Below, piece after piece: positions 4,052 to 62,320 of a DNA stretch of 64,000 bases. Origin of the DNA: Clostridiales bacterium GWF2_38_85 (GTDB lineage Bacteria; Bacillota; Clostridia; Oscillospirales; CAG-382); contig MGOY01000008.1 in the NCBI GenBank assembly GCA_001797275.1, positions 14,083-78,082 of the forward strand, read 5' to 3'. Both the position numbers and the translations under genes were made by a program. How positions within the stretch are numbered: the stretch's first letter is position 1; each line of letters begins with the position of its first letter. The notes below the pieces were generated by a model. That model searched no databases. It worked only from the letters and a program-made list of their open reading frames with translations, and was not told where the DNA came from.

Positions 4052-4852
4052 CTAAATCAATATTGAAATTATATAAAATGCATTGAATACCAAAGACACA
4101 CCGATAACGCTGTCGAATCTGTCCATAACACCGCCATGTCCCGGAAAAATCTTGCCATAATCCTTGATTACGTATATTCGTTTTATCGCAGATGCAAGCA
4201 AATCGCCTGCCTGAGATGCTAGTGACAAAAGAAAGCCTAAGAATACAGATTCAAGCACAGGTATATCCGTAATAAATCCATAGATAAGAAAAGCTATGAC
4301 TGTTGCCATTGTTCCGCCGATTGAGCCTTCAATTGTCTTTTTCGGACTTAGAGTTGGACAAAGCTTATGTTTACCGAAATATTTTCCGGTTATCATGGCA
4401 AAAGAATCCGTAACCCATGAAACGATGAAAAACATCAGGAAAATCAATGTATAAGGATGAAATCTATTGTAATATACTATAAGCCCGAAGCCTGTTGACG
4501 GATACAGAAGAGCTGTAATATACATTGGGATAAATTTATTTACCGGTCTTAGCATATAGCACATAACTATTATTGCAACAGTAAGAATTGTCAGCGGTAA
4601 AACCGTATGTATTATTATACTGCTCGCCAATTCACCGATTATTTTTATATCGGATGCCACCGGAATTGCTGTGCCGATTATAACGCCGACGATCCGAAGC
4701 GGGAGCTTTGCACCGATGCAAGAGCACATTTCGTAAACAGCTACCGCTGATAGAAGCGCTATTACAACAGTGAAAATATATGTATTATGAAATATCAATA
4801 CAGGAATGAATAACAGTAAGGCAATAACCGCCGTAATAACTCTTGTTTTCAT
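4052..4852 (-). CDS. cdsA: phosphatidate cytidylyltransferase
   Basis: Polytopic membrane protein with the C-terminal signature KDYGKIFPGHGGVMDRFDS. Confidence 0.92.
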   Translation of the reverse strand: MKTRVITAVIALLLFIPVLIFHNTYIFTVVIALLSAVAVYEMCSCIGAKLPLRIVGVIIGTAIPVASDIKIIGELASSIIIHTVLPLTILTVAIIVMCYMLRPVNKFIPMYITALLYPSTGFGLIVYYNRFHPYTLIFLMFFIVSWVTDSFAMITGKYFGKHKLCPTLSPKKTIEGSIGGTMATVIAFLIYGFITDIPVLESVFLGFLLSLASQAGDLLASAIKRIYVIKDYGKIFPGHGGVMDRFDSVIGVSLVFNAFYIISILI

Positions 4853-8596: not shown

Positions 8597-8687
8597 GTAT
8601 AAAACTAATAAATGATTTACATCAGCTATTTGATATAAGTCATATAAATATTCTATAGAATTTACATATTTGATAAGTTAGCTTTTA
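8597..8687. repeat. degenerate copy of the palindromic element family
   Basis: GTATAAAACTAATAAATGATTTA (8597-8619) matches the T-variant arm TATAAAACTAATAAATGAATTA. A decayed partner arm AATTTACATATTTGATAAGTTAGCTTTTA lies at 8659-8687. Confidence 0.4.
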
Positions 8688-22002: not shown

Positions 22003-22767
22003 TACCGATTTCGCCTTCCACTCTTTTGGGCTGCAGTCATGGAGTTTGTTGAACAGGCGATAGAAGGCTGACAGGTCGTTATAACCGCATTCCTCAGCAA
22101 TCAGCTGGACTGTACGGTTGGTTGACAGCAGAAGCTGGCGCGCATGATTCATCCGAAGCTCTGAGATATACTGATGCGGTGTGATTCCGTATGATTTTTT
22201 GAATGAACGGATAATATAGTCCTTTGAATAATTCAGCTTTTCTTCAAGCAGCGACAGCGAAAGCGGTTCGCTGTATTTTTCTGCGAGTATGTTCTCAATG
22301 GTTTTAGCAAGTGATGCTTCCTTCTCTTCGATTGTATTTGTTTCTTTCAGTTTTTGAAGTATCTCATAAAATACGCTTGTTATTTCAAGTCGGGTTTTCG
22401 TTTTAGATTTGATCAGGCTATCAAGCTTGAAAAGCAATTCCTTCGTATCGTTGAATGAAAATGTGCCTTTGATTGCAATTCCGGGTGTCGGGTCGGTGAA
22501 GTCGCCATTAAAATGAATATAATAATACTTTGGTGAGCTGCTCGGAGCTACACCCTCCTGAAACAGATTAGCTTTCTGGATGTAATACTGTCCTGCCGAA
22601 ACTTCTACCGGTACATTGTTTTCAGAGAATCTGAGGATGCCCGAAAATACCATCAATAGAACATCCTCGTTGATTGTTCTTGTTATATGCTTTTCATCCG
22701 GGTAAAAATAACGAAACGATGAATTGATGTATTCAGGTAGTGTATCAAAGCTTAAGTATTTGTTCAT
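21997..22767 (-). CDS. AraC family transcriptional regulator
   Basis: N-terminal cupin-like sensor and C-terminal double HTH (ITPHQYISELRMNHARQLL...IAEECGYNDLSAFYRLFNK). Start chosen at MNKYLSF after GGAG (the ORF extends to 22818). Confidence 0.88.
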   Translation of the reverse strand: MNKYLSFDTLPEYINSSFRYFYPDEKHITRTINEDVLLMVFSGILRFSENNVPVEVSAGQYYIQKANLFQEGVAPSSSPKYYYIHFNGDFTDPTPGIAIKGTFSFNDTKELLFKLDSLIKSKTKTRLEITSVFYEILQKLKETNTIEEKEASLAKTIENILAEKYSEPLSLSLLEEKLNYSKDYIIRSFKKSYGITPHQYISELRMNHARQLLLSTNRTVQLIAEECGYNDLSAFYRLFNKLHDCSPKEWKAKSVL

Positions 22768-22863
22768 ATTATTCTCCATCTCGCCGCATAAATAGCTATG
22801 AAAAAGCACATTCCACAAAGCGGATGCTGCTCATGCTTTACGAGCAGCAAGTGGCTTTTTACT

Positions 22864-22888
22864 GCGTGAAAATTCATTTTTCACGCTA
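22864..22888. promoter_or_regulatory. perfect palindrome GCGTGAAAA-N5-TTTTCACGC in the AraC/GH127 divergent region
   Basis: 9-bp arms at 22864-22872 and 22878-22886. The minus-strand reading contains TAGCGTGAAAAAT. Confidence 0.5.
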
Positions 22889-23019
22889 TTTCCTTTTCCA
22901 TTGTTATAAGTAATATACTTCATCAGGTCGATTTTTGCAAGTGTTTGTTCGTATTATTCTATTACAAAATAACGAAAAACTGATAAAATTGAAGAAAAAC
23001 AGTAAGAAGGTGCTTTGGT

Positions 23020-26676: not shown

Positions 26677-27501
26677 TTATTTCGAGTTAATATTTAACCA
26701 CCTTACAACTCCATCATCTGTATTTGGGTCGATTATGGCAGTTGCTTTTTCTTTGACTTCAGGTTTTGCATTCTCTACTGCATAACTTTCATCGCTTGCC
26801 AAGAACATAGGTATGTCGTTAAGATTGTCACCGAAGGCAATTATTTTATCAAAACCATATTCCCTTTTCAGATATTGAACAGCATTGTATTTTGATGCTT
26901 TATCCGAGCATATTTCAAGATACCAATTGTTTTCGTTGTATATATCCCTGTAGAATTCTGTTCGAATGCCTACAATTGCTTTTAACTCTGCATACAAAGG
27001 TTGAAGGTTCTCTGCAATATCTGATACTGAATAATAAACGATTGATTTATCTTTGCAATCGAAGAAGCTGTCAACTTTAGTGAATACTTTGCCATACTTC
27101 ATCTCGCGTTCCTCGATGTATTTTTTTGATATTAAATCATCTACGTTTTCATAATATTTTGATAACTTGTCATCATCAATAGAATAGAAAAATCCTCTAC
27201 CATTATGTTTTTTGACCGTTTCGATAACCTTCATTTTAGACTCTTCGGGAAATCTTTCGATTTTCATATACTTATTTTCTTGAAGATCATAGATACATAC
27301 TCCGTTCATCAGTACAATCGGAACATTCAGATTTACACCGTTGAACATTTTTATTACAGTTGTTGCTGTTCTTGCTGTTGCGATACTCAAATGTATGTTT
27401 TTCTCAAGCAGTTGACATAATACTGTCTTTGCGTATTCGCTTAGTTCAGCATCTTTATTCAAAAGAGTACCGTCAAGGTCTGAGATATAAAGTGTTTTCA
27501 T
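26677..27501 (-). CDS. Cof-type HAD-IIB phosphatase
   Basis: Motifs LYISDLDGTLLN and AFGDNLNDIPMF, with a large cap domain. Confidence 0.85.
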   Translation of the reverse strand: MKTLYISDLDGTLLNKDAELSEYAKTVLCQLLEKNIHLSIATARTATTVIKMFNGVNLNVPIVLMNGVCIYDLQENKYMKIERFPEESKMKVIETVKKHNGRGFFYSIDDDKLSKYYENVDDLISKKYIEEREMKYGKVFTKVDSFFDCKDKSIVYYSVSDIAENLQPLYAELKAIVGIRTEFYRDIYNENNWYLEICSDKASKYNAVQYLKREYGFDKIIAFGDNLNDIPMFLASDESYAVENAKPEVKEKATAIIDPNTDDGVVRWLNINSK

Positions 27502-27512
27502 TTTTAATCCAT

Positions 27513-28166
27513 TTATATATCACTCAATAACTCATTGAGTTCAACTATACTTTCCGCAATATATTCAGATCTTGCATTTTTCAATTCATCTAAGCTGCCA
27601 TAACCGTATAAAACACCGATCGAGTCAATACCTGTTTTCTTAGCACCTATAATATCATGTTCCCTGTCACCAATCATTATAACTGCAGAACGGTCGGTGA
27701 TTCCACAAGATCTTAACGCATATTCTATAACATCATTCTTTGCGACTCTGGTTCCGTCAAGATAGCTGCCTGATACGAAATCAAAATAATTTGCTATATC
27801 AAAATGTTCAAGTATTCGTTCTGCAAATATTGTTGCTTTTGATGTCGCAAGGATTATGGACTTCCCTCTTTGTTTTTGTTCTGAAAGCATTTTTTCAACG
27901 CCATCATAAACTTTATTTTCAAATATACCTTTATCCCTGAAATACTCTCGGAAATATTCAATAGCAACCTTTGCCGTTTCTTTTTGCATACCGAAGTAGA
28001 ATTCAAACGAATCGGTTAATAGCGGCCCAATCAGCTTTTTCAGCTCTGATTTTTCTGGTACTATAATGTCAAGCTTATTCAATGAATAGGCAAACGAGTT
28101 TGTAATACCTTCAGCCGGATCAGTTAATGTTCCATCAAGATCGAATAATAAATATCTTTTTTTCAA
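27513..28166 (-). CDS. HAD-IA family hydrolase (phosphoglycolate phosphatase-like)
   Basis: Motifs LLFDLDGTLTD, ATSK and IGDREHDIIGA. Confidence 0.85.
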   Translation of the reverse strand: MKKRYLLFDLDGTLTDPAEGITNSFAYSLNKLDIIVPEKSELKKLIGPLLTDSFEFYFGMQKETAKVAIEYFREYFRDKGIFENKVYDGVEKMLSEQKQRGKSIILATSKATIFAERILEHFDIANYFDFVSGSYLDGTRVAKNDVIEYALRSCGITDRSAVIMIGDREHDIIGAKKTGIDSIGVLYGYGSLDELKNARSEYIAESIVELNELLSDI

Positions 28167-28169
28167 AAT

Positions 28170-28952
28170 CTACTCCTTTGTAGCATTTGATATTTCTTCC
28201 ATTTGTCTAATCTTGTATCCTACATCTTCAGGGCAATGAGCATCAGAAGCTGTTATAATCCTGATCTTATTCGCTTTTATAGCTTTTATTAGTTCAACCG
28301 ACATACCAAGCTCTGCATTGGTTCTTCTGCTACTTCCGCTGTTTTGTTCAGCATACATATCGCTTTTTGCTAATTCTGCTGCAAGAGAATTATAGTACTC
28401 TGTTAATTCAAAAGTCGGTTTATGACCGTACAGCTTTATACAATCCGGATGTGCGATGCCATCGAAGACTCTACTTTTAGCCAAATCTATGCTTGTTTCA
28501 AAATAACGTTTATATGCTTCATCAACATCGACGCCATCCCAAAATTCCGGTTTATGGTCATATGCAAAATGATCGATAAAATGAATGCTGCCAATAGTAA
28601 AATCAAATCCTTTATTTTTGATTAACTGACCAATAAATTCTTCTGAATTTTTGAAATAGCAGATTTCAAGTCCGAATTTAATTTTTATAGGTAGTTCAGA
28701 ATTTCTGACCTCATCAATTAAATGAAGATAATCACTTAAGTTGCAAACTCCGCCTTTTTTCGCAAGCCATGTTTTAATATAGCTATTATTTGCACAAATA
28801 TCATTGTACATCGGTAAGAATTCTATAAATCGATAGCTGTGCTCAAGAAGCCAAATTTCACTTAGTCCTTGTTCGACAGCTTTATTTATAAACTTGTTAA
28901 TCCAATCAAGAGTATATGGACCTCTTTCAATATGAATATGGCAATCAGTCAT
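28170..28952 (-). CDS. PHP-domain phosphoesterase (HisJ-family histidinol-phosphatase-like)
   Basis: N-terminal DCHIHI, internal GSIHF and AHPD, C-terminal SDAH. Confidence 0.7.
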   Translation of the reverse strand: MTDCHIHIERGPYTLDWINKFINKAVEQGLSEIWLLEHSYRFIEFLPMYNDICANNSYIKTWLAKKGGVCNLSDYLHLIDEVRNSELPIKIKFGLEICYFKNSEEFIGQLIKNKGFDFTIGSIHFIDHFAYDHKPEFWDGVDVDEAYKRYFETSIDLAKSRVFDGIAHPDCIKLYGHKPTFELTEYYNSLAAELAKSDMYAEQNSGSSRRTNAELGMSVELIKAIKANKIRIITASDAHCPEDVGYKIRQMEEISNATKE

Positions 28953-29827
28953 ACTATTTCTTCGATAATATCATATAAATTCAATTCTTCCGCAGCCTTT
29001 TTCCAATAGATTTCTGGTATTATACCGTCTTCCATAAAGCATCTGTCTTCTGAAGCAATTTGGTATGCACGTCTCACGCATTGCATTGGCATATCAGTAC
29101 CTGTCTTGATAAGCGCAATAATACTGTTGCCCCAGACTAGTGACTTTTTTAGGATTTCACTCTTTTTGAATTCATGAATCAATTTTTCTCTATCATAAGG
29201 TATCGAAATTAATTCGTCCTGCCATTTATTATTTATATACTCCAGAGAAACAAATTGAGCATTTGTCTGCCTGTTAGTGGGTAACCCAACACTGCCCACA
29301 AACACGATTTCTTTATTTTCAAAAACATACTTATGGTATCTATGAGTATGACCGCAGAATAAATAGTCTGCATCGATTGAATCGAGATATTTCTTCATCA
29401 ACTCATCTTTTCCGCATATCCACTCATTTGATTTTACCGGAGAGCCATGACAGATTGTAATTGGTGGATAGTAATCAATCGAAATATTCATACATATAGG
29501 CATACTTTCAAAAGTTTTTATATCTGCTTCAGTTAAATTTTCGTATGTATAAAGTACTGCTCCTGTACTCGAAGCATATCGCCATTTTTTGTTATTGCTG
29601 TTATGATAATTTATTATATAGTCTTCTCGATTACCTCTGATGAACCATGTTTTATAACCTTGTGTTCTTGTTTTCAGAAGTTCAAGAGTTTTTTGCGGAT
29701 ATAGGCAATCGCTTATATAATCACCTAAAAATACTAATCCATCATAATTATTTGTATCAATATAATTCAAGCACTCCTCAAGCGCTGTGAAATTGCCGTG
29801 TATATCTGCGAGTAAAGCAAGTTTCAC
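28949..29827 (-). CDS. metallophosphoesterase family protein
   Basis: Motifs LLADIHGN, FLGDYISD, GNRE, CGHTH and GS.G. A GTG start after GGAG overlaps the upstream stop (TAGTG). Alternative ATG at 29851. Confidence 0.8.
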   Translation of the reverse strand: MKLALLADIHGNFTALEECLNYIDTNNYDGLVFLGDYISDCLYPQKTLELLKTRTQGYKTWFIRGNREDYIINYHNSNNKKWRYASSTGAVLYTYENLTEADIKTFESMPICMNISIDYYPPITICHGSPVKSNEWICGKDELMKKYLDSIDADYLFCGHTHRYHKYVFENKEIVFVGSVGLPTNRQTNAQFVSLEYINNKWQDELISIPYDREKLIHEFKKSEILKKSLVWGNSIIALIKTGTDMPMQCVRRAYQIASEDRCFMEDGIIPEIYWKKAAEELNLYDIIEEIV

Positions 29828-30741
29828 TAATTTATCACTCCTGTGTACCATTTTGGAATAGGATTTTGCATATAATCGTAGAATTCTAATACTTCCTTTG
29901 ATTGATTTAGCATTGTTTCTATTTCTTTCCGGCCGAAAGGTATTGCCCAATATACTGATGAAAGAGTGTTTGATATAATATAAAATGCAAGCAATTTAAA
30001 AAAATCTTCTGGTACTTCATTATTAAAATAACCGTTTATTCTGCCGGAAGCGAAATATTTACTGCAATGAGCGCACCAAACAATACGATTGAATTCTTCC
30101 CAAGGGTCTCCGTAATCAAATCTGTTGAAATCAATTATAGATAAATTGTTATCTGATGAAATTATCATATTACCGACATGGTAATCTCCATGATTCAACG
30201 ACTGAGGACGATTTGCAAGCAAATGTCTGTTTTTTTCGATATAATCAAAGAAATAGTTATCACCGTCTATTTTTATACCGCATTCAAGGTATTTTTTAAT
30301 TTTATTATCTGTTTTTCTATTGAATCGTGTTTCCCAGTTTTCCTGAGTTGCAGGAGCCGGAATTGAATGAATTCTCTGAAGTATTTTCCCTGCTTCAACA
30401 CCAATCTCATATTGCTCTTTCGAAGACAGCTCGTGTAATATTGTTTCAGCATCCTCGCCCTCAATCCATGTTAGAAGCATATAACAATTTAACCCTTTGT
30501 TACAATAACCAAAGTCAATCGGCTGCGACATAGGTATCTCTGTTTCGGATATTGTTTTCAATACTTTGAATTCTGATTTTTTGCGGTCATAGTTTAATGC
30601 ATCAGACAATCGCAGCAGCAAACGTCGGTTATCATTGGTTTCAATATAGTATTTCTTATCCTCAGACCAACCTTTTTCAACCAGTATGACTTTTGAGAAT
30701 GAATTGTATTGAGGTATGTCAGAAATCAAATTAATCTCCAT
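29827..30741 (-). CDS. aminoglycoside phosphotransferase (APH)/choline-kinase-fold kinase
   Basis: Brenner motif NHGDYHVGNMII and IIDFNRFDYGDPWEEF. The true start may be the TTG 15 nt downstream of the ATG. Confidence 0.8.
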   Translation of the reverse strand: MEINLISDIPQYNSFSKVILVEKGWSEDKKYYIETNDNRRLLLRLSDALNYDRKKSEFKVLKTISETEIPMSQPIDFGYCNKGLNCYMLLTWIEGEDAETILHELSSKEQYEIGVEAGKILQRIHSIPAPATQENWETRFNRKTDNKIKKYLECGIKIDGDNYFFDYIEKNRHLLANRPQSLNHGDYHVGNMIISSDNNLSIIDFNRFDYGDPWEEFNRIVWCAHCSKYFASGRINGYFNNEVPEDFFKLLAFYIISNTLSSVYWAIPFGRKEIETMLNQSKEVLEFYDYMQNPIPKWYTGVIN

Positions 30742-30921
30742 TCTACCGCACAGCGGTTATAAAAATATAGCGTGAAATGTGTTACCTCACTATATTATAT
30801 AAAACTAACAAATGAATTAGGATATTATTGATTTTGAAAAAGCCGTACAGAAAAGGCTTTTTCAAAATCGCTAAGGTAATTCATTTATTAGTTTTATATA
30901 GTTAACTTAATTTTCACGCTA
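30742..30921 (-). promoter_or_regulatory. conserved leader unit, copy A (TAGCGTGAAAA box ... GC hairpin ... start), interrupted by a nested palindrome
   Basis: Homologous to 33241-33319 at about 80% identity outside the insertion. See findings. Confidence 0.6.
30796..30900. repeat. 105-nt AT-rich nested palindromic element, full copy 1
   Basis: Outer arms TATATAAAACTAACAAATGAATTA / TAATTCATTTATTAGTTTTATATA. Inner perfect 15-bp stem GATTTTGAAAAAGCC / GGCTTTTTCAAAATC. Confidence 0.85.
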
Positions 30922-31429
30922 CCTCCAAAAATTTCTTTATTTCTTTTCTTGTTTTCAGAATAATAATATTTTTTCCTTTTTGGTACTCAATCATTTTAAT
31001 GATATCCGGTCGACTTCTCTTAGGAAAATTGTATATCCATTTTAAAAACTCAAAATCTATCTTCTCTTTACAACCGCTACCCATATCCGGTCGAACTTTA
31101 CCGATATGTGTCAAGCATCGTTTTATCACACTGTAAAGGCAAATCCACCTCTTAATATCAAGAAAAATTATTGTATCAGCTTTTTCAGCTCTCAAATCCA
31201 TTGTGCCGCCGTAATTTCCATCGATTATCCATTCTTCGGCTTCTATTATTTTTGTTTGCACTTCTATCCACTCATCTCGTGGTGTTTGAATCCAATTATC
31301 TTTCCAGAACAGCTTGTCAAGATGAATAAGAGGCAAGCTTAATTTATTATGTAACTTTTTCGCAAATGTAGTTTTTCCGCTACCGGCACTACCTATAATC
31401 ATAATGCGTTTAGATTCTGATAAATCCAT
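30914..31429 (-). CDS. P-loop NTPase, adenylate-kinase-like (topology modulation protein family)
   Basis: Walker A IIGSAGSGKTT and about 170 aa, matching the FlaR/topology-modulation-type small kinase pattern. Confidence 0.7.
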   Translation of the reverse strand: MDLSESKRIMIIGSAGSGKTTFAKKLHNKLSLPLIHLDKLFWKDNWIQTPRDEWIEVQTKIIEAEEWIIDGNYGGTMDLRAEKADTIIFLDIKRWICLYSVIKRCLTHIGKVRPDMGSGCKEKIDFEFLKWIYNFPKRSRPDIIKMIEYQKGKNIIILKTRKEIKKFLEVA

Positions 31430-31450
31430 AACTACCTCTCATATACTGTT

Positions 31451-31966
31451 CTATTTACTGAACAAAAACTTCTCAAATGCTTTTCTTAATGGTATCAGTC
31501 TTGTGCCAACCGGCTCAGCAATCATACCGCTGTTTATCATCTCATCCAACTTACCAAGTGTTACCCATTGTGCGTCGACCGTTTCGCTCTCTTGCATAAC
31601 AAGCTCGCTTATTTCGACATCTTTTCTGATTATATATGTATCAATAAACGCTGTTTCTTCTTTCAATTCTCCAAGAAAATTCAGTTCGTTTTCTTCTGCT
31701 TTTATTCCTGTTTCTTCGAACAATTCTCTAACTGCTCCCTGTACGCTTGTTTCACCGGCAAGTATTGAGCCTGCTGAGTTTTCCCAAAGGTTTGGAAAGC
31801 ATTCCTTATTTGGATCGCGAAGTGTCAGCAGAATTTCTTGTTTGCTGTTGACCGTCCATATATCGACGACGATATGATAATCACCTCGTTTAATATGTTC
31901 GCCTCTTTTTTGCAATCTACCAAGCAGCTGTCTGTTACCGTCGTATAAATCCCAAAGCTCCATCAT
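31451..31966 (-). CDS. NUDIX hydrolase
   Basis: Nudix box GETSVQGAVRELFEETGI. Confidence 0.88.
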   Translation of the reverse strand: MMELWDLYDGNRQLLGRLQKRGEHIKRGDYHIVVDIWTVNSKQEILLTLRDPNKECFPNLWENSAGSILAGETSVQGAVRELFEETGIKAEENELNFLGELKEETAFIDTYIIRKDVEISELVMQESETVDAQWVTLGKLDEMINSGMIAEPVGTRLIPLRKAFEKFLFSK

Positions 31967-33240
31967 TTCAATCCTTCCAGTACATCAATAATTTCTGTCC
32001 AATTCTTTATATGCTGATGGTTATAATCAATAGTATCGGTGTATTTGTCACGATAATAGCATTCAATATTGCTGTCATACCACACAGGAAACATACCGGC
32101 TGAGTTTGCTCCTGCGATATCATAATAGACATTATCACCGCAAAACCAAATTTCTTCGGGTTTCAGATTTGCTTTTTTTATTGCAAGCTCAAATATCATA
32201 GGATCGGGTTTTCGCACAATATATTCACTTGATGCTATTATAAATTCGAATTTATTATTAGGAAAATTTTTGTTTATACGTTCTGCGAGAGAATCACCTG
32301 AGAATGAAATATTGCTTATAACACCGCTTCTGATTTTATTTTCATTTATGTAACTGATAACTTTATCTATATCAGACATTTTTTCACCGGGCGCAGCGTT
32401 ATCCCAGAATATCTGCTCTATCTCATCAGGCTCAAGTGGAATGTCAATTTCAAGATACTCGTAAAGCATGCGTTGAAATTTGTGATTGTGGAATTCCAAA
32501 GCATTTGTTCTTGCAATTGGCCTGAGCTTTGAAAAGAAATTTGCGGAAAACTCACTGTCTTGAATGGGTGTCAGATTGTTTTTATTATACACCGCATACT
32601 TCATTACAGCTTCGGTTCCCTTAACACCATTAAATCCGAGTTCGCACATCAGAGTATGACCATAATCAAATATAATCATCTTTGGATAAGTCATTTTAAG
32701 TTTGCTCTTTTCTTTTTCAGCTTTTCTCAATATATCTTCAAGAAAATCGTGTTTTCCTTCAATGTACAAGTCAATATCATGTCGATACTTTTCGGCAAGC
32801 TGTATTTTTAATTTGCCGTATTCATCTGCTGCTGTTTTATATTTACGCAGATAATCCCTGAATACAATATGTCTTGCAAGCTCACGGCTATTTTTCGGGC
32901 ATACATACATATGATAATCCATAAATTCATTCTTGAAGTTTCTCTTAAATGCTTCGCGTGCCTTAATTCCGAGATCACCTTCATGACTATATCCGAGTGC
33001 TTCAAGTCGATTGACGAGTTCGGGGAATATGTCATATGATTCAATTATGATATTGAAATCGATAATTGGCTTTGCTGATAATCCCTCAACCGATGTGCTG
33101 CCAACATGCTCAATCCCAATGATGATATCTGAGATGTGAGGCATTAACATATCTTTTATCTTCTCAAATTCGTTTTTCCATTCGGGGTTATAGGGTTCGA
33201 CAATAATTGTGCGGTTTGGATTATACATATTAATTTCCAT
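31963..33240 (-). CDS. GrpB (UPF0157, nucleotidyltransferase-fold) - HAD-like hydrolase fusion protein
   Basis: N-terminal half: IIVEPYNPEW...IEHVGSTSVEGLSAKPIIDFNI...HMYVC (GrpB). C-terminal half: IIFDYGHTL...SNISFSG...FCGDNVYYDIAGANSAG (HAD motifs I-IV, with the second Asp of motif I replaced). Confidence 0.75.
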   Translation of the reverse strand: MEINMYNPNRTIIVEPYNPEWKNEFEKIKDMLMPHISDIIIGIEHVGSTSVEGLSAKPIIDFNIIIESYDIFPELVNRLEALGYSHEGDLGIKAREAFKRNFKNEFMDYHMYVCPKNSRELARHIVFRDYLRKYKTAADEYGKLKIQLAEKYRHDIDLYIEGKHDFLEDILRKAEKEKSKLKMTYPKMIIFDYGHTLMCELGFNGVKGTEAVMKYAVYNKNNLTPIQDSEFSANFFSKLRPIARTNALEFHNHKFQRMLYEYLEIDIPLEPDEIEQIFWDNAAPGEKMSDIDKVISYINENKIRSGVISNISFSGDSLAERINKNFPNNKFEFIIASSEYIVRKPDPMIFELAIKKANLKPEEIWFCGDNVYYDIAGANSAGMFPVWYDSNIECYYRDKYTDTIDYNHQHIKNWTEIIDVLEGLK

Positions 33241-33319
33241 TCTGCCGCGTAGCGGCTGTATAAAATATAAGGTGAAATAAATTACCTTCCATCATTTGTT
33301 AAGTTAATTTTCACGCTAT
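33241..33319 (-). promoter_or_regulatory. conserved leader unit, copy B (compact)
   Basis: Minus-strand sequence TAGCGTGAAAATTAACTTAAC...GGTAATTTATTTCACCTTATATTTTATACAGCCGCTACGCGGCAGAATGGAAATTAAT. Confidence 0.6.
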
Positions 33320-34069
33320 CTGTCTCCTTTTATAAATGTCTCCGCTTTCGACAGAATATCCTTATATTTTTCATGTATAAGCAGGTTGCAAGTTGTTTCT
33401 CTATCTGTCCAGATATATTCTTTGATTTCCGAATTTGGTGTTATAACTGTGTTTGACACCTCAGACAAAAATAAAATTACCTGTTTTTGGCGAAGCGGAT
33501 TAATATTGTAAACTATTTCTTCACGAAAATCAAGTACTAATTTTACATTTATTCCTATTTCTTCTCGAACTTCGCGAATTGCTGTATCAGATTCAATTTC
33601 AAAAACTTCCGAATGTCCTTTAGGAAAGCTCCAGGTTCTTGATTTTTGTTGAAACAATAATAAATATTCGATATTGAAATTTGTTTTGCTTTTTTCGATA
33701 AATAATTACCCCACAGGATTTCTTATAAAGAGCATGTATTGTTGTTTTGAAATATAACTCTTGAAAATTAACCGCTTCGGCAACCTCTGCTTGATTTAGC
33801 TTCACATTTTCGGGAGCGACAACCCATTTATCTTCAACATCATCTTCTCTTTTAATTACAGCAATAATTCTTCCTGTGAACTGCTTGACAGGATGGTCAA
33901 CACCGAGAAGGTACGCATCCTGTTCCTCGCCATCGGGTGCAATAACACCTTCTATGTAGCCGTAATTCACTGGATAAATGATATTTTTATATTCAGGATG
34001 TGTGCTTCCAAGCGGTCTGTCTACTGTAACTATTTGATTTAATATATCATCATACATATCTATGACCAT
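33316..34069 (-). pseudogene. inorganic-pyrophosphatase-like domain - NUDIX fusion gene, interrupted by a 1-nt frameshift
   Basis: ORF 33620-34108 (VDRPLGSTHPE...YPVNYGYI...DGEEQDAYLLG...EDKWVV...SCGVIIYRKKQNKFQY) and ORF 33316-33657 (WSFPKGHSE...AIREVREEIGI). They join into one NUDIX domain if one base near 33668-33675 is removed (..KFQ-EYLLLFQQKSRTWSFPKGH). Confidence 0.7.
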
Positions 34070-34089
34070 TCCTTTTTTTATATATAAAC

Positions 34090-34118
34090 ATAATAACATA
34101 GTTTTCATGTTTATTCAA
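34090..34118 (-). promoter_or_regulatory. sigma-A-type promoter at the head of the phosphoesterase island
   Basis: Minus-strand TTGAAT (34118-34113), 17 nt, then TG-n-TATTAT (34095-34090). Confidence 0.55.
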
Positions 34119-38357: not shown

Positions 38358-38639
38358 TCACAATCTATCCTTCATATGAATTTCATATGAATTAATTTTT
38401 TCACGCAACTGCTTGTTTGTTATGTTTTCTTTAACATCAAGTGGTTGCAAAATGTCAATGTCTGCATCAACAATTACTTTGATATGCCGTAGCTTTTTCT
38501 TTTTAGGCTTTTCTATCCGCCTGTATTTGCCATCGGCAATTAAATAATAATTATTGTCGACTCTTGATACTACAACGAAGATTCTGCCATTGTCTCGCCC
38601 GGCGGTTGCTGTAATCAAACAGCCCAGAATATCATCCAT
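38358..38639 (-). CDS. KOW domain-containing RNA-binding protein (small, conserved between map and infA in Clostridia)
   Basis: ..ATAGRDNGRIFVVVS....YYLIADGKYRRIEKPKKKKLRHI. Start is uncertain (the ORF extends to 38669). Confidence 0.6.
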   Translation of the reverse strand: MDDILGCLITATAGRDNGRIFVVVSRVDNNYYLIADGKYRRIEKPKKKKLRHIKVIVDADIDILQPLDVKENITNKQLREKINSYEIHMKDRL

Positions 38640-51555: not shown

Positions 51556-51666
51556 TTTATATTAAACTAACAAATGAATTGTGATTTTATTAATTTGAAA
51601 AGACCAAAGAGTATAGACACTTTTCAAATTGCTTAGGTAATTCATTTATTAGTTTAATATAGTTAA
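51556..51666. repeat. AT-rich nested palindromic element, full copy 2
   Basis: ATATTAAACTAACAAATGAATT...AATTTGAAAAG(N17)CTTTTCAAATT...AATTCATTTATTAGTTTAATAT, followed by AGTTAA as in copy 1. Confidence 0.85.
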
Positions 51667-61609: not shown

Positions 61610-61717
61610 GAAACAAGGAATTTAGCGTGAAAAATATACAATGCAAAGATACAGTGGCGCGTATCTCCATGTATTATTCATGACTATTTTTGCCCGAAAC
61701 AGGGCATGGAGATTATA
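61610..61717 (+). promoter_or_regulatory. structured leader of the radical-SAM gene with the TAGCGTGAAAAAT box and an anti-SD/SD pairing option
   Basis: TAGCGTGAAAAAT at 61623-61635. ATCTCCATG (61663-61671) is exactly complementary to CATGGAGAT (61705-61713), which contains the SD. Confidence 0.5.
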
Positions 61718-62320
61718 ATGCTGACTATAACTTACATTGTCGACAACTCGCTTTATGTCAACATAACAAACCGCTGTACAAACAACTGCGATTTCTGTAT
61801 CCGAAATAATGGGGATGGAGCATATGGCAGCAACAGCTTATGGCTCGAACGTGAACCGACAGTTGATGAAATTTACAATGATATCATGAAATATCAACTC
61901 GATAAATACGATGAACTGATATTCTGCGGATACGGTGAACCGACAATGCGTGTTTACGACCTCGTTGAAGTCGCAAAAAAAGTTAAGGCGGCATCGAATA
62001 TTCATATACGGATTAATACGAACGGACATGCCAATCTTGTTCACCGCACAGATGTAACTCCCCTTTTCGAAGGAATAATTGATACTGTATCTATCAGTCT
62101 TAACAATGCCAATAAAGAGGATTACAACAGTATCTGCCACCCAGCATATAAAAATGCATATGAAAAGATGATAGAATTTACTGCTCTTTGTTCAAAACAT
62201 GTAGAAAATGTCGTTATGTCTGTGGTCCACGGTACGATCCCAGATGAGAATCTTGAGAAGTGCAGAATTATCGCAGAAAATGCAGGTGCAAAGCTCAGAA
62301 TCCGTGAATACATCTCATAA
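61718..62320 (+). CDS. TatD-associated radical SAM protein (TIGR04038-like)
   Basis: CTNNCDFC (CxxxCxxC) near the N-terminus. Lies immediately downstream of tatD. An alternative start lies at 61706. Confidence 0.8.
   Translation: MLTITYIVDNSLYVNITNRCTNNCDFCIRNNGDGAYGSNSLWLEREPTVDEIYNDIMKYQLDKYDELIFCGYGEPTMRVYDLVEVAKKVKAASNIHIRINTNGHANLVHRTDVTPLFEGIIDTVSISLNNANKEDYNSICHPAYKNAYEKMIEFTALCSKHVENVVMSVVHGTIPDENLEKCRIIAENAGAKLRIREYIS

Follow-up and report, generated by a model that had tools for sequence, protein, structure and literature searches.

The repeated unit in front of the APH-like gene is probably one of a family of small, non-autonomous insertion elements of Clostridia, locked in orientation and lodged between the native Shine-Dalgarno sequence of a gene and its start codon. 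On our best reading it is a new clostridial insertion repeat of MIRU-like type, found at start codons. The element is roughly 90 bases long (~80-110 nt). On its 5' side it leaves the native Shine-Dalgarno in place, and its 3' end is followed by the start codon of the gene.

The observation behind this reading is real, and the copy number is far above chance. In the window (the whole 64-kb stretch of DNA that we analysed) the 11-mer TAGCGTGAAAA, which we call the box, has exactly four exact matches, against 0.03 expected from 100 dinucleotide-preserving shuffles. An earlier reading, made from the sequence alone, had judged four shared 11-mers improbable by chance, and rightly so. It had also placed the core always on the strand of the downstream gene, and all four boxes are indeed sense relative to that gene. 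Each box is paired with a block, ATGGAGAWTAAT, which lies 67-169 nt downstream and directly 5' of an ATG or TTG start. When the window was searched with profiles of the two end modules, the same four copies came out as the top matches for either module, and neither profile turned up an orphan end. Two one-mismatch box matches, at 38398 and 48873, were rejected as copies; both lie inside coding sequence of the ribosomal operon and are unrelated. This region of the window is downstream of rpoA-rplQ. The features of the four copies, A to D, are these:

30730-30921, minus strand: unit A, whole element, with the P-loop kinase gene upstream and the APH-like gene downstream (TTG start codon at 30727-30729)
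30911-30921, minus strand: 5' box of unit A, TAGCGTGAAAA, whose TGA (30914-30916) is the stop of the kinase gene
30798-30898, no strand assigned: second repeat nested in the loop of the first hairpin (P1) of unit A, a 101-nt palindromic miniature element
30768-30777, minus strand: 3' strand of hairpin P1 of unit A, TTTCACGCTA, perfectly complementary to the box over 10 bp, with T-rich TATTTTTAT after it
30745-30757, minus strand: small GC hairpin of unit A, ACCGC-TGT-GCGGT, directly 5' of the replacement ribosome-binding site (RBS)
30730-30741, minus strand: 3' block of unit A, ATGGAGATTAAT, the element's own Shine-Dalgarno (GGAG) and spacer
33229-33318, minus strand: unit B, between the NUDIX gene and the GrpB-HAD gene (start ATG at 33226-33228)
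33308-33318, minus strand: box of unit B, TAGCGTGAAAA
33268-33277, minus strand: 3' strand of P1 of unit B
33244-33256, minus strand: hairpin of unit B
33229-33240, minus strand: 3' block of unit B
22768-22888, minus strand: unit C, in the 5' leader of the AraC-family gene (start ATG at 22765-22767)
22878-22888, minus strand: box of unit C, TAGCGTGAAAA
22864-22872, minus strand: local partner of the box of unit C
22793-22805, minus strand: distal partner of the box of unit C
22768-22779, minus strand: 3' block of unit C
61623-61717, plus strand: unit D, between the TatD gene and the associated radical-SAM gene (start ATG at 61718)
61623-61633, plus strand: box of unit D, TAGCGTGAAAA
61663-61670, plus strand: internal anti-Shine-Dalgarno of unit D, ATCTCCAT
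61677-61686, plus strand: 3' strand of P1 of unit D
61692-61705, plus strand: GC hairpin of unit D
61706-61717, plus strand: 3' block of unit D

All four window copies carry their parts in the same order: a purine-rich stretch that resembles a Shine-Dalgarno and lies 0-5 nt 5' of the box, the box, a complement of the box, a T-rich tract, a further hairpin and a AGAATGGAGATTA-like sequence, from which a spacer of 1-5 nt leads to the start codon. The ends of the unit (5' TAG-C-GTGA, 3' AGAATGGAGATTA) are conserved and the interior is variable. Two frames of the box contain a stop, TAG and TGA respectively, and the remaining frame a GTG. Box and complement (TTTCACGCTA in A, TTTCACCTTA in B, TTTTCACGC together with TTTTTCATAGCTA in C, TTCATGACTA in D) make up hairpin P1, formed either locally or around the variable interior. 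In unit A the GTG of the box stands 4 nt after a native GGAGG (30922-30926); in unit B the box TAG (33316-33318) is the stop codon of the upstream NUDIX gene; unit D has a native AAGGA (61615-61619) just 5' of the box; and unit C, which lies downstream of a promoter-like TTGCAA-17-TATATT, follows a native AAGGAAA at 22889-22895. At the other end of the unit, the gene start comes after ATGGAGATTA.

Much of what the sequence-only reading said of A and B holds. It put them at about 80% identity, and they are 80% identical (75/94 columns) once the nested insert of A is taken out. The box of A contains the upstream TGA stop, as it stated. AGCGTGAAA and TTTCACGCT can pair as the base of a hairpin, the 5-bp GC hairpin at 30745-30757 is present, and both appear in the minimum-free-energy fold. 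The A-T closing pair of that small hairpin is G-C in B and in L090, a related unit from another genome. The homologous spacer of copy B, given as 33241-33319, also stands, with its end one base too far: the spacer really ends at 33315, TAG at 33316-33318 being the upstream stop. Unit A is long (a 180-nt spacer) because a separate 101-nt element is nested inside it. The nested element is flanked by TA at 30796-30797 and 30899-30900, and a second copy of it lies at 51560-51659, where its terminal repeat TATAAAACTAAYAAATGAATTA is found again.

Where the earlier reading saw the similarity of A and B run into the first four codons of the genes, we part company with it. We think that the shared ATGGARATTAAT more probably consists of a ribosome-binding site (GGAG) and its spacer, with the genes starting at the TTG or ATG that follows, because the orthologues of the radical-SAM protein behind unit D and of the Roseburia nitroreductase begin at the position of this second start. 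The AraC orthologues fit the first or the second start equally. Gene callers disagree over the starts of the APH-like and GrpB-HAD genes, with lengths of 304 versus 299 aa and 425 versus 421 aa between them.

The family extends well beyond the window. A scan of one genome per species with the pattern box-N55-85-ATGGARAWTAW gave 39 loci, of which about 17 are expected by chance on our own estimate, and some 18-20 are clear copies: they share internal landmarks that the pattern had left free. One genome gave four matches. Nearly all of these copies come from Clostridia/Bacillota genome bins labelled Oscillospiraceae, Ruminococcus, Lachnospiraceae or Selenomonadaceae. A scan of metagenomes added at least about ten further distinct units, among them one in R. 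rectibacter; the dominant metagenome locus among the matches listed, found in more than 100 human-gut assemblies, lies upstream of a nitroreductase gene of Roseburia intestinalis. Further copies in related genomes, on which the sequence-only reading had staked its case, are therefore not in short supply: at least about 27 distinct ones, in Clostridia genome bins and gut metagenomes that include R. intestinalis and R. rectibacter. Since an exact match to both the 5' box and the 3' block was a condition of either collection scan, the invariance of the ends and the copy counts outside the window are biased, and the unbiased evidence for conserved ends is that of the four window copies only. Within the 1.29 Mb of fetched loci we found no variant copy with up to two mismatches at both ends and no real orphan 3' end; the one match, at position 4330 of locus L030, is inside a terminase gene. 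Viral contigs, scanned with two gap ranges, gave no match, and blastn found none among 72,556 plasmids. A full-text literature search for the exact strings TAGCGTGAAAA and ATGGAGATTAAT returned no relevant paper, and keyword searches on intergenic repeats of Clostridia or Roseburia returned nothing specific.

The relationship to genes is strict. Among the matches listed, all 27 distinct units are sense to the downstream gene, and in 26 of the 27 a real ORF (at least 77 aa) starts 0-5 nt after the unit. Upstream ORFs, where there are any, stop anywhere from 21 nt 5' of the box up to the box TGA, and the box TAG or TGA itself serves as the upstream stop in A, B, L004, L014 and L027. Several copies (C, L023, L028, L031) sit in 5' leaders with no upstream gene at all. 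A Shine-Dalgarno-like tetramer lies no more than 14 nt 5' of the box in 23 of the 27 units among the matches listed; these tetramers vary in sequence and spacing, as expected of native sites. The sequence-only reading had thought of an enrichment of particular gene families, and among the downstream genes we find no functional coherence: 20 proteins fall into 20 unrelated Pfam families. Encoded there are, among others, a radical-SAM enzyme, GrpB-HAD, APH, AraC, aldose epimerase and the products of such housekeeping genes as tmk (thymidylate kinase), ligA (DNA ligase), uvrB (UvrB) and metF (MTHFR), as well as transaldolase, a PASTA kinase, rubrerythrin and a GNAT acetyltransferase.

The evidence that the unit inserted comes from three loci at which fairly distant relatives, at 59-78% protein identity, have an empty site. 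The first is the junction of TatD and radical-SAM genes, which in the window, with unit D, measures 108 nt and in the closest relatives (proteins 59-66% identical) is a 17-nt spacer, a 4-nt spacer or a 4-nt overlap. The second is the divergent GH127/AraC region, where four orthologous loci (69-75% identity) lack the ~110 nt of unit C. Here the sequences align through the promoter block ACAAACACTTGCAAAAATCGACCT to the Shine-Dalgarno, after which the orthologues run straight to the ATG and the window has its ~110 extra bases. The third is the Roseburia nitroreductase, whose orthologues (76-78% identity) read ...AGGAGGAT(G)AT...ATG with no unit; in R. intestinalis the unit is placed after GGAGGAT. 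Since orthologous sites at three independent loci lack it, the unit is an insertion and not an ancestral leader. Among the relatives compared, at 59-78% protein identity, we saw no recent presence/absence polymorphism.

Dispersal points the same way. Unit D is 94% identical to the unit of L064, which sits between a permease gene and a thioredoxin-like gene, and the flanks of the two are unrelated. Copies are mostly single, with tandem or partial-tandem arrangements at L017/L040 and L043. At the Roseburia locus the 38 nt 5' of the box repeat the last 37 nt of the unit, a partial tandem, and one pair of Roseburia contigs diverges exactly at the 3' end of the unit. Some units lie where a contig ends; L017 and L040 share one that bridges the break between their contigs. 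Outside this partial tandem copy, none of the units compared (25 of 26) has a significant direct repeat between flank and unit that could be a target-site duplication; a TA dinucleotide is conserved at both unit ends, where it is inseparable from the sequence of the element. In an alignment of 25 units there are no terminal inverted repeats, the 5' TAGCGTGAAAA and the 3' ...AGAATGGAGATTA not being complementary, and where the 3' block recurs inverted, in L032 and L040, it does so inside the unit. We found no mobilising gene, nor any autonomous protein-coding version of the element in scans whose patterns detect short versions only. With mobilising gene, terminal inverted repeat and target-site duplication not found, we infer mobility only from the pattern of presence and absence and from dispersal.

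Could the unit instead be a shared cis-regulatory mRNA leader, in which hairpins and, in some copies, anti-Shine-Dalgarno sequences control access to the ribosome-binding site, the cue being a global RNA-binding protein, the translation of the short upstream frame or a pause of transcription in the T-rich tract that follows P1? The sequence-only reading had listed such an RNA first among its possibilities, and there is something to be said for it. The unit is always sense and directly abuts the start codon, a Shine-Dalgarno and a GTG come together at the 5' box, and A, L040 and L024 are predicted to keep their replacement ribosome-binding site sequestered. An exact anti-Shine-Dalgarno is found in D, L064, L110, L017, L032 and L040. 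We nevertheless think a shared leader unlikely. RNAalifold returned no consensus pair and no covariation, whether for 25 or for 10 sequences, so the covariation for which that reading had proposed a test did not appear; the interiors align poorly. Across the alignment of 25 units the ends are invariant, mean column identity is 44%, and interiors differ completely between subfamilies. Nor is there any asymmetry between strands: the sense strand folds better than the antisense in 14 of the 27 units among the matches listed (Wilcoxon p = 0.75), both strands fold equally well, and the hairpins are for that reason ordinary palindromes, not RNA-specific structures. Rfam gave no match at the gathering threshold over the whole window and chance-level matches only at permissive E-values over units and loci, which bears out the earlier remark that this is no known riboswitch class. 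The downstream genes are functionally unrelated, and the orthologous leaders at the three loci do without the unit. The anti-Shine-Dalgarno of some subfamilies hints, on its sequence, at regulation rather than mere tolerance, and these features leave room for a regulatory role in the copies that have one, D included.

A second alternative grants that the unit was once a repeat and holds that it has been domesticated as intercistronic punctuation, kept because its hairpins uncouple the expression of neighbouring genes by acting as partial terminators, RNase processing sites or 5'/3' stabilisers, as in REP/BIME and BOX elements. Every copy does have at least one very stable hairpin between two cistrons, in many copies followed by a T-rich tract (CTATTTNT), and units start right at upstream stop codons. 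Against this, a consensus scan found no sense-strand terminator-like site in the four window units, and C, L023, L028 and L031 lie in 5' leaders where there is no upstream gene to punctuate. We consider it distinctly unlikely. A similar scan for promoters found no usable one in the window units; a promoter-like TTGCCC-18-TATAAT in unit D (61690-61719) was discarded, as it ends on the start codon and would leave no leader.

The sequence-only reading had also raised a cassette-boundary repeat, and in spirit this comes closest to the insertion repeat that we favour. What does not survive is the mobility of the cassette. A site-specific recombination site like an integron attC, with the unit and the gene or genes behind it moving together, would suit the imperfect hairpins with their bulged bases and variable loop lengths, and the strand-locked units among small accessory-type genes of the 26.7-34.1 kb block. 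The radical-SAM, AraC and nitroreductase genes, however, stand beside the same neighbours in orthologues that have no unit. Downstream genes keep their ancestral positions, which means that it was the unit, and not a cassette, that moved. Unlike attC sites, copies are single and dispersed on both strands, not arrayed, and no GTTRRRY-type core is found at their boundaries. As an account of the unit this is very improbable.

Hardly tenable is the proposal, again from the earlier reading, of a family of transcription factor operators, in which a dimeric protein would recognise the inverted repeat AGCGTGAAA / TTTCACGCT on DNA. Copy C and several relatives do contain a near-perfect, short-spaced palindrome, GCGTGAAAA-N3-5-TTTTCACGC. 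The spacing of the half-sites, though, runs from 3 to ~130 nt, a range that a dimeric operator does not allow; of the two half-sites the 5' one is constant and the 3' one variable; and most copies are inside operons, directly after a stop codon, not at promoters. The known parS, Rex, CRP and cre-type operators fit in neither half-site sequence nor spacing. The leader consensus of RfaH ops / JUMPStart is the 12-mer GGCGGTAGnnTG, which copy A approaches with GGAGGTAGCGTG (11/12); we judged this coincidental, the bases 5' of TAGCGTG varying in all other copies. That A and B, 2.4 kb apart on the same strand and 80% identical, are merely a recent local duplication and the other two 11-mers chance is almost certainly wrong, since the coding flanks of A and B are unrelated and close relatives of both subfamilies occupy quite different loci of another genome (L064 for D and, for A and B, L090, a unit between a Fur-family gene and rubrerythrin that is 78% and 82% identical to A and B, which resemble one another to the same degree), while C and D also have both end modules and at least about 27 distinct copies exist elsewhere. 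Such a duplication, coding sequence included, was one of the outcomes that the sequence-only reading had named as telling against it, together with a lack of further copies; none of them came about in full.

How might such an insertion be endured? From their sequence we infer that the ends make the insertion tolerable and that they have the following effects on translation. The two-frame stops of TAG-C-GTGA would end a truncated upstream gene at once, as they do in A and B. In the third frame the GTG of the box would lie at initiation distance, 5-12 nt, from the native Shine-Dalgarno, and could capture its ribosomes. The 3' end, AGAAUGGAGAUUA, would supply a replacement Shine-Dalgarno and spacer to drive the displaced gene anew; its AGAAUGGAG resembles AGAAAGGAGG, the extended Shine-Dalgarno consensus. 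The hairpins may be signals to the mobilising enzyme and may also act as punctuation in the mRNA.

The internal frame opened by the box GTG deserves a closer look. It reaches the 3' block in 12 of the 27 units among the matches listed against 5.5 expected, p being about 0.004 for units that are not independent of one another. In about 40% of the family it would thus span the entire unit and stop at or over the start codon of the gene. In four of the 27, again among the matches listed (L028, L031, L039, L042), its end overlaps the start of the gene as ATGA, and in L014 and L092 frame and gene nearly abut. In the window the frame is short (7-18 codons) and uncoupled in all four copies and reaches the 3' block in none, so the downstream genes there probably rely on the element's own Shine-Dalgarno. 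In nearly every unit the prediction puts the box GTG in a base pair (median probability of being unpaired 0.01) and leaves the second GGAG about half accessible; with its GTG paired, the internal frame may be translated only weakly, unless ribosomes arriving from upstream open the hairpin. A conserved leader peptide was considered and dropped: the peptides share only MK(N/I) and range in length from 4 to more than 50 residues.

Among known systems the closest in description are the MIRUs (mycobacterial interspersed repetitive units). The passages of PMC12548453 that concern them, drawing on Supply et al. 1997, portray short intergenic repeats in the orientation of the genes, apparently mobile and inserted at start codons, with an internal short ORF that takes over from the upstream stop and couples at -4, by a 4-nt overlap, to the downstream start. 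Compared by description only, our unit is also co-oriented with the gene, at the start codon and apparently mobile, and has tandem copies at L017/L040 and L043; a 4-nt ATGA overlap occurs in four of its 27 units among the matches listed (L028, L031, L039 and L042). It differs in its hosts, which are low-GC Clostridia and not mycobacteria; in being mostly single, where MIRUs form tandem arrays of 46-101-bp units; in its own strong Shine-Dalgarno, hairpins and highly variable interior; and in an internal ORF that is short and uncoupled in most copies, including all four of the window.

Other likenesses are more partial. General classes of MITE are listed in PMC3184786. Like RUP, Correia and the TA-flanked nested element of unit A, our unit is small, multi-copy, non-coding and intergenic, absent at orthologous sites and a breaker of assemblies; unlike them, it has no terminal inverted repeats or demonstrable target-site duplication and keeps a strict orientation to the gene. 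The BOX elements of Streptococcus pneumoniae, intergenic and modular, combine conserved ends (boxA and boxC) with a variable middle and form stable hairpins; they are non-autonomous, and no enzyme is known to mobilise them. Our unit is likewise modular and non-autonomous, with conserved ends, variable middle and stable hairpins, whereas BOX occurs in either orientation, is not tied to the junction of Shine-Dalgarno and start, and has no stop, start or Shine-Dalgarno signals in its ends. REPs are single GC-rich hairpins of 20-40 nt, found in both orientations, clustered and mostly 3' of genes, without a ribosome-binding site. With REP/BIME (REPIN) sequences the unit shares its palindromes, its place within about 20 nt of upstream stops and a possible influence on mRNA stability and on translation of the next cistron; it departs from REPs in its ribosome-binding site and fixed orientation. 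Integron attC sites are further off, as synteny of the downstream genes holds where the unit is missing, its copies are scattered over both strands and its ends have no GTTRRRY. Last come the synthetic bicistronic design (BCD) adaptors, which PMC12548453 also mentions. The unit resembles them in its layout (a first Shine-Dalgarno, a short leader ORF that holds the second, a stop overlapping the gene start), its internal ORF reaching the second Shine-Dalgarno in 12 of 27 units among the matches listed; it is a natural repeat, though, and the window copies have no spanning ORF.

What does this mean in practice? The element misleads start calling. The nitroreductase of R. intestinalis is annotated at 170, 174 or 199 aa, according to whether the real ATG, the ATGGAG of the element or its GTG is taken as the start, and the APH-like and GrpB-HAD genes of the window show the same disagreement. 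As copies sit at contig breaks, the repeat also fragments metagenome assemblies. Its occurrence in cultured, abundant gut commensals (Roseburia) opens its effects on translation and its mobility to experiment. For genome evolution, for the annotation of gene starts and as a natural analogue of bicistronic translation adaptors, we see the relevance as moderate.

We also entertain, tentatively and as a rather unlikely case, that the unit represents an undescribed class of Firmicutes mobile elements that insert specifically into the region of translation initiation, in the short gap separating Shine-Dalgarno from start codon. Were that true, such specificity would imply a targeting machinery as yet unknown, for instance a hairpin-recognising single-strand DNA enzyme or a nucleic-acid-guided mechanism, and the element would be a compact, self-neutralising design of two-frame stops, start and replacement Shine-Dalgarno. 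As several copies have a perfect anti-Shine-Dalgarno, some may since have been recruited to serve as natural bicistronic adaptors or switches of translation. The insertion repeat that we favour would be the second independent example, after the MIRUs of mycobacteria, of a repeat that colonises start codons and brings its own translation signals, and would suggest a general route by which selfish DNA can live inside operons without killing their expression.

Units A and B, two of the window's copies of the roughly 90-nt repeat inserted between a native Shine-Dalgarno sequence and its gene, interrupt a run of about nine co-oriented, tightly packed genes for enzymes of the 'house-cleaning' type, which lies directly downstream of rplQ. 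The two junctions that these units break would otherwise be overlapping. We also came across a second repeat family in the window, unrelated to the unit: a palindromic miniature element of about 101 nt with terminal inverted repeats (TATAAAACTAAYAAATGAATTA), TA at either side and, in its interior, a hairpin that looks like a bidirectional terminator. One of its copies is nested within unit A.

26677-34108, minus strand: gene run (pyrophosphatase-like, NUDIX, GrpB-HAD, NUDIX, P-loop kinase, APH, metallophosphoesterase, PHP, HAD, HAD)
30796-30900: miniature element copy 1, with TA flanks, inside unit A
51560-51659 (51558-51661 with flanks): miniature element copy 2, full
8598-8619: single terminal repeat of the miniature element, alone

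The E. coli RfaH ops consensus is GGCGGTAGCGTG, and GGAGGTAGCGTG at copy A (30915-30926, minus strand) agrees with it at 11 of 12 positions. We rejected an ops identity and judged the match coincidental because its GGCGG portion is conserved in no other copy of the unit. Unit C lies in the leader of an AraC-family gene. Between this gene and the divergent GH127 gene, the block ACAAACACTTGCAAAAATCGACCT (22912-22935, minus strand) is kept in all the orthologous loci (L167-L170), and is probably the -35 region of the AraC gene's promoter together with an operator.

Two Roseburia metagenome contigs, L057 (1-700) and L118 (28-720), have in common 566 nt of upstream sequence and the entire unit, and part exactly 3' of its ...ATTAATATG. 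Beyond this point L118 runs into deoB. On L057 a convergent gene terminates here, its stop codon overlapping the unit's end. Either a rearrangement took place at the unit or one assembly is chimeric.

Units can also follow one another. In the nitroreductase leader of Roseburia intestinalis (L043, 2236-2273; also L171), the 38 nt directly 5' of the box, the unit's conserved 5' end, duplicate its last 37 nt, so this leader holds about 1.5 tandem units. The nitroreductase is annotated as 170, 174 or 199 aa, according to which start-like signal of the element each gene caller picks. Tandem units, head-to-tail and spanning a contig break, occur in L017 and L040, which with L032 form a subfamily carrying a perfect internal hairpin, ATTAATCTCCAT-N5-ATGGAGATTATT, whose two arms are copies, one inverted and one direct, of the 3' block, the conserved end with the replacement ribosome-binding site.

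L017, 6426-6574: hairpin subfamily member
L040, 2729-2883: hairpin subfamily member
L032, 494-621: hairpin subfamily member

In this subfamily, the anti-Shine-Dalgarno could pair with the decoy copy in the hairpin or with the real ribosome-binding site.
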